DNA of 4,404 bases from a virus (lineage: Duplodnaviria > Heunggongvirae > Uroviricota > Caudoviricetes). This document shows, one piece after another, positions 1 through 2,996 of this stretch (positions are counted from its first letter, which is position 1; each line of letters starts with the position of its first letter). The stretch lies in IMG/VR virus record IMGVR_UViG_2690316231_000014; one strand, given 5' to 3'. The translations under genes were made by a program, and so were the position numbers. Under the pieces are notes generated by a model. That model was not told the origin of the DNA and did no database searches. It worked only from the letters and a program-made list of their open reading frames with translations.

Positions 1-834
1 CCACGGCACATCTGCAGCACTGCCACCATGGCACTGCGCGTTAAACACGGAGAGGTCAGCACGAAACTGTGTCAGCATGGCTGTAAACAGCGCAGGTTGC
101 TGTGCGTGGGTGGCGGCGCTCATGTCAAACTCACCCTGCATCCAGCAGACGGCCAGCAGAACGTTTTTGGGATTTTTCTGCAATGCCGCTTTTGTGCGGG
201 AAATCAGATCCTGATATAACGGCTTGCCCACCCCCCAGCGTGCCGAATCCTGACTGGCCCCCGTGGACTCGCTGAATGTCCCCTCCGCGCCCTGGGTAAA
301 TGCCGAACCACCACGACAGCATGGTACCAGCAGGATCCCCGCGTTATTCGGGATATACGGGAGCAGTTTTTTGGCAATATGTAAACCCTGACCGACACAG
401 CCGTACTGCCCTTTGCTCAGGTCAGCCCTCGGATGATTCAGCGTACTCATATCCTGCACATCATGCAGACAGTGGTCAGCCGGAATAATATCGTTATATC
501 TGCAGGCAGCCCCGCCCGGCGTCACTGTACTGCGGCGCGCCAGCTGTTTAATGCGCGGATCCGGAGCATCGTATGAATCCGGCAGCGGAAGCCCTTCACC
601 GTAAGCCATGGCATTGGACTGCCCGGCCAGTACGATGACGTAGTACCAATCCGGCTCAGATGAAGGGCCGACCTGTGGCTCTCCTTCAATAGCCACCGCC
701 TGCATCAGTGTGTACGGCGTAATGGCAACCGGTCCGCCGTATGGCTGCCAGCCCTCTTTCAGTTTGTGTGTCAGCTTTTCCGCAAGGTCTGACGGCGACG
801 CCGCCCTGACAACATCGTAATGTTTAATCGACAT
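1..834 (-). CDS. Partial CDS (N-terminal 278 codons; continues beyond position 1): prophage NanS-p-like sialate O-acetylesterase, SGNH/SASA-family hydrolase with a DUF1737-like N-terminus
   Basis: Hand translation of the minus strand from ATG at 834..832 is open for 278 codons to the window edge, which is why it is missing from the ORF track. It begins MSIKHYDVVRAASPSDLAEKLTHKLKEGWQPYGGPVAITPYTLMQAVAIEGEPQVGPSSEPDWYYVIVLAGQSNAMAYGEGLPLPDSYDAP. A GGGAG Shine-Dalgarno (forward 842-846) sits 7 nt upstream of the ATG. GQSNAMAYG is the block-I catalytic-serine motif of SASA/SGNH sialate O-acetylesterases. From memory, the N-terminus and overall architecture match the esterases encoded downstream of stx in Stx-converting phages. 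The four short ORFs in the track over 28-488 are in other frames. Confidence 0.75.
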   Translation of the reverse strand, partial: MSIKHYDVVRAASPSDLAEKLTHKLKEGWQPYGGPVAITPYTLMQAVAIEGEPQVGPSSEPDWYYVIVLAGQSNAMAYGEGLPLPDSYDAPDPRIKQLARRSTVTPGGAACRYNDIIPADHCLHDVQDMSTLNHPRADLSKGQYGCVGQGLHIAKKLLPYIPNNAGILLVPCCRGGSAFTQGAEGTFSESTGASQDSARWGVGKPLYQDLISRTKAALQKNPKNVLLAVCWMQGEFDMSAATHAQQPALFTAMLTQFRADLSVFNAQCHGGSAADVPW

Positions 835-920
835 CGAATTTCTCCCGTGTAGAGGAACAGAGTTAAAAAGCCGGAAGCGGAATCAAATCACAGGATGACC
901 ATCTGCCAGTGGCAGGTCAT

Positions 921-947
921 AAAAAAAAGGCTGCGCAATGCGCAGCC
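921..947 (-). terminator. Rho-independent terminator for minus-strand transcription (8-bp GC-rich stem, 3-nt loop, U8 tract)
   Basis: Forward 929-947 is GGCTGCGCAATGCGCAGCC, a perfect 8-bp stem (GGCTGCGC/GCGCAGCC) with a 3-nt loop. On the minus strand it is followed immediately by eight T (forward A8 at 921-928). There is no T-run after the hairpin on the plus strand, so it is unidirectional. Confidence 0.7.
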
Positions 948-1376
948 AGAACTCACAAGGAAAATGATAAAAGGAATAACACTAGTGATGTACGCATGGC
1001 GCCTCCCGCTAAGTTCTGCAATGATCAAACAGAACTCGCTACGTGCCCTTAAAACTCGATCATTTAGCCCCTCCAAGGAGGATTCACCATGCGGTTGATT
1101 TTTTAATAAACAGTAAACAAAAAAGTCAAGAATTATTCATTCTGTTCTTTCATCATCGGCCACAGCAATACCACAATGCCGCAGACCAGAGCGCCATCAG
1201 TCAGTACCAACATTATCCTGCTGGTGAAATCCATCATCACCATCACTAAAAGCAGGATCACAACAGCAAGCAGACACAGTTTATAAAACAATGTTCAGAA
1301 AACGCATTCAGCATGCCTAAGGTTCTATTCCTACGAATAGCCAACTTGCAACTTAAAATATTATTTATGCAGCCAA

Positions 1377-2135
1377 TTAAATTCTGGTCCTTACAATATC
1401 AACCTGAAGATTCTTATCTTGTGCTGATTGATAAATGACAAACCTTTTACTACCTGCATTGAAAGAAGTAGACAAAACCAGACAATTATCATAACGAGCA
1501 AGAACATAATACCAACCATCATTATAATTAATCATTTCATATTCTTTCTTAAACTGTGGTTTGTAATATCCTGTCAGAAATGAAAAAAGCCAAAAATATG
1601 CCACAAAAGCAATCATCACAATCTCAAAAAAATGTTTTTTTATAAATGGCTTATCATAGAAGCATGATACCGATAAAAATCGCCCATAAGATCTTATCGA
1701 AATTGTAACCGCCAGCGCAATCGCTGCTGACAGTAGCAAAAGAGGTACCTGAATCTTCTGTCTCAATATAGAAAACTCAATAATTGCCGGCACAAACAAT
1801 AATTCCACAGCAAAATAAAGGCGAAATACATTTAGCTCTTGCATAGAATGTTTTCTTTTCACTGCGAAAAAGAATACAACACCAATACCCCAACCGATAA
1901 GAAATATAGCAATGACGATAACTGCAAAAAATAAACTTCTGGCAACATCATCAACACCTGCACCTACAATCCACCATGGGAAGCCGTAGTAAAAAGAAGT
2001 ACCCCATCCATAGAAATAAGCACTCCCCCATCCAAGGCATCCCATGTAGGCAATAAAAAGTGAAGAACTCCTGAGCAGCGCACCATCCTTCATAACCACC
2101 CCAATACAAGATGATAACATTGGCTTACAACTCAT
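1377..2135 (-). CDS. Hypothetical multi-pass inner-membrane protein with a ~60-aa hydrophilic C-terminal domain; AT-rich cargo (moron) gene of unrecognised family. Start uncertain: ATG 2135, or ATG 2093 preceded by GGGGTGG
   Basis: A 252-codon ORF on the same strand as Q, about 160 nt downstream of the pR'-like promoter. No competing ORF of 60 aa or more is reported on either strand across this 759 bp despite its AT-richness. By eye there are 5-6 hydrophobic segments (GWGSAYFYGWGTSFYYGFPWW, LFFAVIVIAIFLIGWGIGVVFFFAV, VFRLYFAVELLFVPAIIEF, VPLLLLSAAIALAVTISI, FFEIVMIAFVAYFWLFSFLTGYY) and then a polar C-terminal tail. Hand-counted G+C in sampled 60-nt blocks is 25-37%, against about 50% in Q. 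The first ATG has no Shine-Dalgarno. Confidence 0.6.
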   Translation of the reverse strand: MSCKPMLSSCIGVVMKDGALLRSSSLFIAYMGCLGWGSAYFYGWGTSFYYGFPWWIVGAGVDDVARSLFFAVIVIAIFLIGWGIGVVFFFAVKRKHSMQELNVFRLYFAVELLFVPAIIEFSILRQKIQVPLLLLSAAIALAVTISIRSYGRFLSVSCFYDKPFIKKHFFEIVMIAFVAYFWLFSFLTGYYKPQFKKEYEMINYNDGWYYVLARYDNCLVLSTSFNAGSKRFVIYQSAQDKNLQVDIVRTRI

Positions 2136-2372: not shown

Positions 2373-2996
2373 CTAACGTGTGATCGCATTCAAAATGTTG
2401 TCTGCGATTGACTCTTCCTTGTGGCATTGCACAACCAGAGCGTCATACAGCGGCTTAACAGTGCGTGACCAGGTGGGTTGGGTAAGGTTTGGGATTAGCA
2501 TCGTCACAGCGCGATATGCGGCGCTTGCTGGCATTCTTGAATAACCGACGCCTTTACATCTTCCGCACTCTTTCTCAGCAACTATCCCCCACTGCTCTGT
2601 TTTGGCTATATCAACCGCACGGCCTGTACCGTGGCAATCTCGGCATCTTGCGCCCGGCGTAGCGGCACTACGGCAATAATCCGCATAAGCGAATGTTGCG
2701 AGCACTTGCAGTACCTTTGCCTTAGTATTTCCTTCAAGCTTTGCCACGCCACGGTATTTCCCCGATACCTTGTGTGCAAATTGCATCAGATAGTTGATAG
2801 CCTTTTGTTTGTCGTTCTGGCTGAGTTCGTGCTTACCACAGAATACAGCCATTCCGAATCCGGCTTGTGATTGCGCCATCCCCATAGCAGCCATCACATC
2901 AGTACCGGAAAGAGAGTCAGAAGCCGTGGCCCGTGGTGAGTCGCTCATCATCGGGCTTTTTGGCGAATGAAATTTAGCTATGCTTTCGAGTCTCAT
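2373..2996 (-). CDS. Q: Late-gene antiterminator Q (lambda type)
   Basis: Complete 207-codon ORF, ATG 2996..2994 to TAG 2375..2373. The translation ([44 protein letters not shown] ... [18 protein letters not shown]) is, as recalled, near-identical to phage lambda Q. It carries the paired Cys cluster CRDCHG ... CGRCKG. The start overlaps the upstream stop (ATGA) and it is followed by pR'/qut. Confidence 0.95.

Follow-up and report, generated by a model that had tools for sequence, protein, structure and literature searches.

A tciB-like (DUF3927) gene uncoupled from tciA and adjoining a PasD-family small RNA in a lambdoid prophage

The DNA analysed here (the window) is a stretch of 4,404 nucleotides (nt) from the Caudoviricetes record IMGVR_UViG_2690316231_000014 of IMG/VR, and the subject of this study is a small gene on its minus strand at 1133..1291. 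The open reading frame (ORF) list, Pfam, PHROG and the record annotation place here a coding sequence (CDS) of the DUF3927 / TciB-like type, which begins at TTG 1291-1289, ends at TAA 1135-1133 and encodes a product of 52 amino acids (aa), MFYKLCLLAVVILLLVMVMMDFTSRIMLVLTDGALVCGIVVLLWPMMKEQNE. We believe it likely that we are dealing with a lambdoid prophage gene of the tciB-like (DUF3927) type, which is 52 aa in its full length and probably has a low level of expression. RefSeq, Pfam, PHROGs and the curated record of phage 434 already contain the gene, its family and the exact protein.

The initial annotation had proposed a 36-aa ORF at this place. The minus-strand frame does end at TAA 1135-1133, and from ATG 1243 onward it reads MVMMDFTSRIMLVLTDGALVCGIVVLLWPMMKEQNE, as was written there. 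The 36-aa boundaries had to be given up, because the frame is open for a further 48 nt (16 codons) 5' of ATG 1243, as far as TTG 1291 (the in-frame TGA lies at 1297-1295), the annotated gene is 52 aa long, and conservation extends 5' of ATG 1243. The 36-aa sub-ORF (1133..1243, minus) corresponds to the C-terminal 36 codons of the 52-aa gene and starts at the internal Met17. The 52-aa product matched the Pfam profile PF13064 (DUF3927) with 53.0 bits (cut-off 25, E 3.4e-14) and PHROG 1470 'TciB-like' with E 2.5e-17, and it passes the hidden Markov model threshold of the DUF3927 family on both. The 36-aa part alone gave 51 of the 53 bits (E 1e-13) and spans profile positions 17-49 of 53. Because 76 ORFs of at least 20 aa share the window, an ORF of such size is compatible with chance, and it is the PF13064 match that lifts this one above it. 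Together with the record annotation, this match supports the earlier proposal that the ORF is a genuine gene, whose small hydrophobic product is probably a membrane protein. The overlap with plus-strand ORFs was also correctly noted; these lie at 1043..1249 (68 aa) and 1176..1286 (36 aa), and the 68-aa one, the sole overlapping ORF scanned, matched no Pfam family.

The 52-aa protein is identical to RefSeq WP_000499454.1 ('DUF3927 family protein'). The interval 1133-1291 is annotated exactly so in phage 434 (CPT_434_69, 'TciB') and in E. coli E2865, and E2348C_0687, at 740958-741116 of strain E2348/69 of enteropathogenic E. coli (EPEC), encodes the identical 52-aa protein (WP_000499454.1). Over positions 900-1400, the window matches phage 434 and E. 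coli E2865 with 100% identity and differs from E2348/69 by 4 mismatches in 501 nt, all inside the small RNA (sRNA) described below. Of 5,426 complete E. coli genomes, 690 contained similar DNA, at a median of 5 sites in each positive genome and with roughly 3,100 copies overall. DUF3927 proteins are encoded by approximately 13% of complete E. coli genomes, frequently more than once. A literature search for WP_000499454 found nothing, DUF3927 is mentioned in just 2 papers, and Ribo-seq evidence for the ORF was not found in the literature; the Ribo-seq study of enterohemorrhagic E. coli (EHEC) (PMC5331693) tabulates STnc100 copies, not this ORF.

Homologues of the window protein were found in phage P1, the N4-like phage Pollock, the lambdoid phages LMessi and Evi, Klebsiella phage 5, and prophages of Pseudescherichia, Enterobacter and Pantoea. 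All of them are 49-55 aa long and align with the window protein from residue 1, and therefore the 16 residues omitted from the 36-aa ORF belong to the conserved protein. In an alignment of 8 sequences, M1, K4, L14, V18, D21, F22, T23, S24, L30, L35, W44, P45, and K48 are invariant; in an alignment of 17 sequences, which reaches down to 31-45% identity, D21 and D32 are invariant and V18, F22, S24, S28, G33, L35, and P45 are nearly so. Two hydrophobic segments (residues ~2-20 and 26-45, with hydropathy peaks at ~5-20 and 33-45) lie around a polar DFTS(R/K) motif, the second invariant aspartate, D32, is inside the second segment, and basic residues are found near both ends of the protein. The single 22-residue helix with charged ends described in the initial annotation covers only part of this architecture, because the extra 16 residues make up another hydrophobic segment. 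The general plan of the family, about 50-60 aa with two hydrophobic segments flanking DFTS and then D-G and W-P-x-x-K, is present in the window protein as D21 F22 T23 S24, D32 G33, W44 P45, and K48. We speculated that the product is a small inner-membrane protein, most simply a hairpin whose two ends would be cytoplasmic by the positive-inside rule. A profile search of PDB sequences found no related structure at E up to 1, and the NCBIfam scan of the ORF product gave only sub-threshold noise. A phmmer search against 1.84 billion representatives returned only 24 clusters; the matches show DUF3927 as a small family, apparently limited to Enterobacterales and their phages.

Some variation within the family was also observed. 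DUF3927 proteins of E. albertii (P0030, P0048, P0066, and P0071; locus L110, 1100-1273) carry one to three in-frame tandem copies of a 7-aa (21-nt) LEAGGWR unit, with a CGIVGLWD repeat as the alternative, and these repeats sit within the second hydrophobic segment. The C-terminal tails of the family, MMKEQNE and VIKRNSLHNA, are separated by a 2-nt indel just before the stop codon (window 1133-1150 compared with loci L097, L109, and L007). The N-terminal, middle, and C-terminal blocks of the gene occur in several combinations, which indicates frequent recombination within this gene of 160 nt.

In all of the 12 loci inspected outside the window type, the DUF3927 start overlaps or abuts the upstream stop codon (GTGA, TGATG, TAATG); in Pollock, the upstream TAA is followed directly by the ATG of the DUF3927 gene. 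The upstream ORF is 140-200 aa long in 9 loci and in the annotated records of P1, Pollock, and LMessi. For L097, L101, and L103, which are E. coli prophage loci, the upstream call is just a 48-aa tciA remnant or is absent. The upstream proteins tested (4 of 4) exceed the Pfam cut-off for TerB. A tight overlap of stop and start codons without a Shine-Dalgarno (SD) sequence is a classic signature of translational coupling, which suggests that TciA and TciB are made together, and from this coupled production TciB is proposed as the membrane partner of the soluble, TerB-like TciA. The most probable role of TciB would thus be that of a membrane partner or anchor for TciA, and tciA-tciB would be a non-essential accessory module made in lytic growth. 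In P1, tciA, tciB, and tciC were non-essential for lytic growth in a genome-wide CRISPR interference (CRISPRi) study (PMC10695390), which gave the only functional result found for tciB.

The window gene stands outside such a coupled module: its upstream neighbour is a TfpB-like gene of 247 aa, and the gap is 85 nt. This cargo gene (1377..2120, minus) encodes a polytopic membrane protein of PHROG 1521, and the alternative ATG 2135 would give 252 aa; its 'TfpB' label (Pfam PF27470) is taken from precomputed matches of identical-length orthologues only. The 85-nt spacer (1292..1376, minus) is AT-rich (36.5% GC) and contains the in-frame TGA 1297-1295, no SD, and no promoter-like site. When window-type copies were compared with tciA-linked copies, DNA homology began only at approximately codon 4 (AAACTG...), and the DNA upstream was unrelated. 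The TfpB-like gene and the spacer have a GC content of 36%, compared with 43% for the ORF and 51% for the antiterminator gene Q. We conclude that one recombination replaced tciA and the original start region. The AT-rich TfpB-like gene took the place of tciA, with the junction at about codon 3-4 of tciB and the spacer as the recombination junction. With tciA replaced, the window tciB is therefore an uncoupled 'orphan'. Every window-type copy, that of E. albertii among them, shares this junction with its TTG and its TGA one codon upstream.

Translation of the orphan gene would need the SD-less TTG 1291. Duplex energies with the anti-SD sequence were calculated, and the window background was -2.4 ± 2.6 kcal/mol (mean). 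The energies of the ATG starts were +0.6 kcal/mol (ATG 1243), -3.9 kcal/mol (ATG 1234, GGUGA), and -3.4 kcal/mol (ATG 1213). The comparison genes Q, NinI, and NinG of the same window gave -5.9 to -8.6 kcal/mol, the esterase gene gave a strong -7.4 kcal/mol, and the TfpB-like gene gave a weak -2.2 kcal/mol. The weak or positive energies bear out the earlier remark that the candidate starts have no clear SD. Because the start is an SD-less TTG, the translational output is probably low. An inverted repeat, GAUCCUGCU ... AGCAGGAU, was also seen inside the ORF (window 1215-1259, minus); it is predicted to form a hairpin (-18 to -21 kcal/mol) with the internal ATG cluster (Met17, Met19, Met20) inside.

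Immediately downstream of the ORF lies a 172-nt Hfq-binding sRNA of the PasD / STnc100 family (921..1092, minus), a homologue of EHEC EcOnc13, which was assigned by Rfam and by identity with PasD2 of E2348/69. Window 1092-921 is identical to E2348/69 at 168 of 172 positions at the published PasD2 coordinates 741157-741328, and this near identity to a verified PasD includes the UGUGAG seed, its flanks (PMC8550237 Fig. S5), and the terminator. PasD2 is an Hfq-bound sRNA verified by Northern blot and by RIL-seq, in which interacting RNAs are ligated and sequenced (PMC8550237). The Rfam STnc100 model (RF02076) matched at full length (918-1122, minus) with 41.4 bits (E 1e-7), which is below its gathering score of 47. 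Zhu, Shabalina and Storz (bioRxiv 2026) independently found PasD beside Q, LpxR, and the esterase; in their account it is related to STnc100 in structure but lies outside it in sequence. In the sister loci, the DUF3927 stop is followed after 5-8 nt by a bona fide STnc100 (101-120 bits); an sRNA of the STnc100/PasD family after tciB is therefore a fixed feature of these E. coli prophages.

A putative sigma-70 promoter of the sRNA lies at 1100..1129 (minus), with the -35 element TTGACT at 1129-1124, an 18-nt spacer, and the -10-like element TAAAAA at 1105-1100; it was read by eye from the sequence, and the consensus scan did not call the site. Its -35 element begins 4 nt past the ORF stop, and its -10-like element lies 7 nt before the reported PasD 5' end at 1092 (PMC8550237 Table S6). 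The intrinsic terminator (921..947, minus) has an 8-bp GC-rich stem at 947-929 followed by a U-tract and is annotated as a terminator in phage 434. The initial annotation had placed the ORF in the transcriptional unit of the cargo gene, upstream of this terminator; the hairpin and U-tract are real, but they end a separate sRNA gene between the ORF and the esterase gene, and not simply the cargo operon. The terminator would stop the sRNA and any unmodified read-through from the ORF. Its stem is perfect in the window, and a U-G wobble pair is present in E2348/69.

The promoter scan called no promoter-like site preceding the ORF. In RNA-seq of EPEC E2348/69 under the activating condition (PMC8550237 Table S2), the baseMean was 69 for Q, 226 for the TfpB-like gene, and 36.7 for the ORF, and the same table gives 11,017 for pasD2, 102 for the esterase gene, and 3.5 for the holin gene. 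Our own division by length gave baseMean values per nt of ~0.23 for the ORF, ~0.31 for the TfpB-like gene, 0.10 for Q, and 0.017 for the holin gene. The similar read densities of the ORF and the TfpB-like gene (~0.23 and ~0.31 per nt) fit the earlier claim that the ORF is co-transcribed with the upstream membrane gene. We speculated that the orphan tciB is transcribed only by read-through from the upstream gene, which would be low in lysogens and presumably strong under Q antitermination.

The copy counts that follow come from two overlapping IMG/VR locus sets in which a contig may contribute several loci, and they are used qualitatively only; one scan of genome contigs with a narrow search pattern gave 9 loci. 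The TTG and an intact frame are preserved in each of the 133 window-type copies, which make up 12 haplotypes and include E. albertii. The sister type, which starts with GTG and is tciA-linked, has 83 copies, of which 12 have a truncation or a frameshift; tciA is a 48-aa fragment at 10 of these 12. The initial annotation had named stops or frameshifts in homologous copies as evidence against the ORF; none was found among the 133 window-type copies, but they do occur in the sister type (12/83). The intactness of the window-type copies weighs little because most of them are near-identical. Window-type copies of E. coli and E. albertii differ over the N-terminal 20 codons by 3 synonymous changes and 1 non-synonymous change. 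The shortened tciA was seen in L097 (2682-3004) and ~39 other GTG-type loci of Shiga toxin-producing E. coli (STEC) and other prophages, where the TerB-like gene is cut to a 48-aa C-terminal fragment. The DUF3927 ORF is mostly open in these loci, and the disrupted copies, of 43, 45, and 53 aa, are concentrated there (10/12).

Three other explanations of the ORF were considered. A shorter, single-helix peptide of 33-36 aa could be made from an internal ATG (1243, 1237, or 1234), which is a stronger start codon than TTG; of these, ATG 1234 offers the best SD-like match, a still weak GGUGA (-3.9 kcal/mol), and the 36-aa part holds almost the whole Pfam score (51 of 53 bits). We consider this very unlikely, however. 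The N-terminal 16-20 residues, which such a peptide would lack, keep their length, hydrophobicity, and K4 across phages at 40-45% identity, and the segment is also conserved within the window type. ATG 1243 has no SD (+0.6 kcal/mol), Met17 is Val in many relatives, the ATG cluster lies within the predicted local hairpin of -18 to -21 kcal/mol, and both the Prokaryotic Genome Annotation Pipeline (PGAP) and the curators of phage 434 call the 52-aa form. The initial annotation had also likened the peptide to a type I toxin, that is, a membrane-damaging peptide silenced by an antisense RNA. The ORF product is indeed small, hydrophobic, and prophage-borne, has poor translation signals, and is encoded near an abundant sRNA. 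Nevertheless, the neighbouring PasD runs in the same direction as the ORF without overlapping it, and hence is not an antisense RNA; an Rfam E-value scan of both strands found no Sok, Sib, IstR, or Rdl-type RNA and only the co-directional STnc100/PasD-like RNA downstream, and the promoter scan found no plus-strand promoter-like site over 1100-1300. Pfam, NCBIfam, and PADLOC gave no match of the ORF product to Hok/Gef, Ldr, Ibs, TisB, ShoB, or any other toxin family. The gene has no promoter of its own in the promoter scan, and its ancestral arrangement is that of a coupled second cistron behind tciA and not of a stand-alone locus. A toxin of this type is therefore hardly credible here.

The remaining explanation is that the orphan tciB is a decaying remnant that lost any meaningful translation after tciA was replaced; its DNA would persist only because it is flanked by a selected moron, the TfpB-like gene, and a selected sRNA, PasD, and because little time has passed since the rearrangement. 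We regard this as possible but unlikely. Several observations favour it, and together with others they weigh against a functioning tciB-like gene. The TTG 1291 is a weak start without an SD (+0.4 kcal/mol), 85 nt from the preceding gene, and its ancestral coupling to tciA is lost. The window protein has C6 where most members have R (the K-x-R start) and L28 where S is nearly invariant; it lacks the well-conserved R6 and the nearly invariant S28, which stand outside any formal family definition, and in the alignments C6 and L28 mark the window allele as atypical. The closest window-type variant differs by 1 synonymous and 6 non-synonymous changes, including L5P and S24R, and another copy carries W44R. 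The ratio of non-synonymous to synonymous substitution rates (dN/dS) was 0.45-0.65 between clades, which is weak support, and ~1 for the N-terminus between the two start types, in a Nei-Gojobori test that is underpowered by 52 codons, a recombination mosaic, and a C-terminal tail swapped by a 2-nt indel. Sister copies do decay (12/83, 10 of the 12 beside the 48-aa tciA), and the near-identity of most window-type copies makes their intactness weak evidence. In addition, the pairing of TfpB-like and DUF3927 genes traces to a single junction and so gives no independent support for a functional link between them. The AlphaFold2 model (18-sequence alignment, predicted local distance difference test score (pLDDT) 79.6) is one continuous helix over residues 2-51 and not a hairpin; on this single-helix model D21, S24, S28, and D32 would fall on one helical face. 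The 'tci' name comes only from the homology of TciA to TerB, the tci arrangement having first been named in P1, and the literature contains no experiment that assigns a function to any DUF3927 protein. On the other side, none of the 133 window-type copies has a stop or frameshift, and the TTG is kept in the more diverged E. albertii copy; changes of the N-terminal segment within the type are mostly synonymous. D21 and D32 are retained, as are most of the nearly invariant residues (V18, F22, S24, G33, L35, P45) and W44. Since the SD of the TfpB-like gene upstream is weak too (-2.2 kcal/mol), SD-poor initiation may be normal for the AT-rich module. On balance we prefer the 52-aa tciB-like gene expressed at a low level.

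The result corrects the gene model, which is a protein of 52 aa with two hydrophobic segments and not one of 36 aa with a single segment. It carries little weight as a discovery because the gene, family, and exact protein are already recorded. The uncoupled window copy is, however, a clean natural test of whether an SD-less TTG can support a small membrane protein, and the ORF abuts the promoter of PasD, a well-expressed, virulence-associated sRNA. A phenotype for DUF3927 would be new, and nothing in this analysis predicts one. One could speculate that the orphan TciB is still made from the SD-less TTG and re-used as a partner of the TfpB-like protein, or of TciA supplied in trans by co-resident prophages, and that D21 and D32, sharing a helical face with S24 and S28, make up a site in the membrane, binding ions or a partner, that alters envelope physiology, for example phage or colicin exclusion, in EPEC and EHEC lysogens; we think this improbable.

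The other features of the window and of its relatives are as follows. The late antiterminator gene Q (2373..2996, minus) lies upstream of the cargo module and encodes 207 aa, and the equivalent 207-aa gene of locus L106 matches PF03589. The 5' part of a carbohydrate esterase gene of the SASA family (NanS-like) lies at 1..834 (minus) according to the record annotation and runs off the end of the window. The TfpB-like cargo gene, at 36% GC, is far more AT-rich than its flanks. Its name recalls the pilin accessory proteins of the TfpY/TfpZ/FimB type, and the gene lies in the late region of an E. coli lambdoid prophage. PADLOC found nothing for it, and it is listed as a PasA target in EPEC by RIL-seq. 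Two public CDS calls overlap the sRNA and terminator: CPT_434_70 of phage 434 (888-1076, minus; 62 aa), named 'putative membrane protein', and, at ~811-1052 (plus), a pseudo 'hypothetical protein' of RefSeq. The 62-aa frame of CPT_434_70 had no family match and spans the terminator hairpin, and both calls are therefore probably spurious. In prophage PP4 of E2348/69 (locus L232, 3801-4199), the esterase gene is absent, and an antisense 'CDS', E2348C_1013, lies over and after PasD1. It has a baseMean of 2,064 and a log2 fold change of -2.9 in the hfq mutant, that is, it is highly expressed and Hfq-dependent, and it is sRNA-like in RIL-seq.

The window gene can be compared with several known systems. 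CPT_434_69 of phage 434, WP_000499454.1, and E2348C_0687 are the same protein in near-identical local DNA with the same flanking genes, and nothing material differs; the antiterminator upstream is 229 aa in phage 434 and 207 aa in the window. The tciA-linked copies of Stx-type (Shiga toxin) and other lambdoid prophages (phage Evi and the 'MTVKLRL...' proteins) are 60-67% identical to the window protein and occupy the same slot between Q and holin, with an STnc100-family sRNA 5-8 nt after the gene. They differ in a GTG start that overlaps the tciA stop (GTGA), in another N-terminal allele, and often in a KRNSLHNA tail, and many of them are decaying together with tciA. The founding member of DUF3927 / PHROG 1470 is TciB of phage P1 (P1_gp075, YP_006541.1), which belongs to the same families as the window protein, is 54 aa long against 52 aa, and shares with it 42% identity and the M-x-x-K, DFTS, D32-G33, and W-P-x-x-K motifs. 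P1 tciB overlaps the tciA stop in the C1-controlled ban operon region; the window gene, unlike it, has no tciA, starts at an uncoupled TTG, and lies in a Q-dependent late region behind the TfpB-like gene. The type I toxins Hok, Ldr, Ibs, TisB, and ShoB resemble the ORF product in size, hydrophobicity, and frequent prophage location, but the ORF has no antisense RNA and no sequence relationship to them, its product has two hydrophobic segments with conserved acidic residues, and it was ancestrally a coupled second cistron. KdpF, AcrZ, and MgtS are peptides of 50 aa or fewer, or of roughly this size, and work through binding to a larger partner whose gene is adjacent or elsewhere. Although they have no homology to DUF3927, by analogy they may serve as a working model for TciB with TciA.

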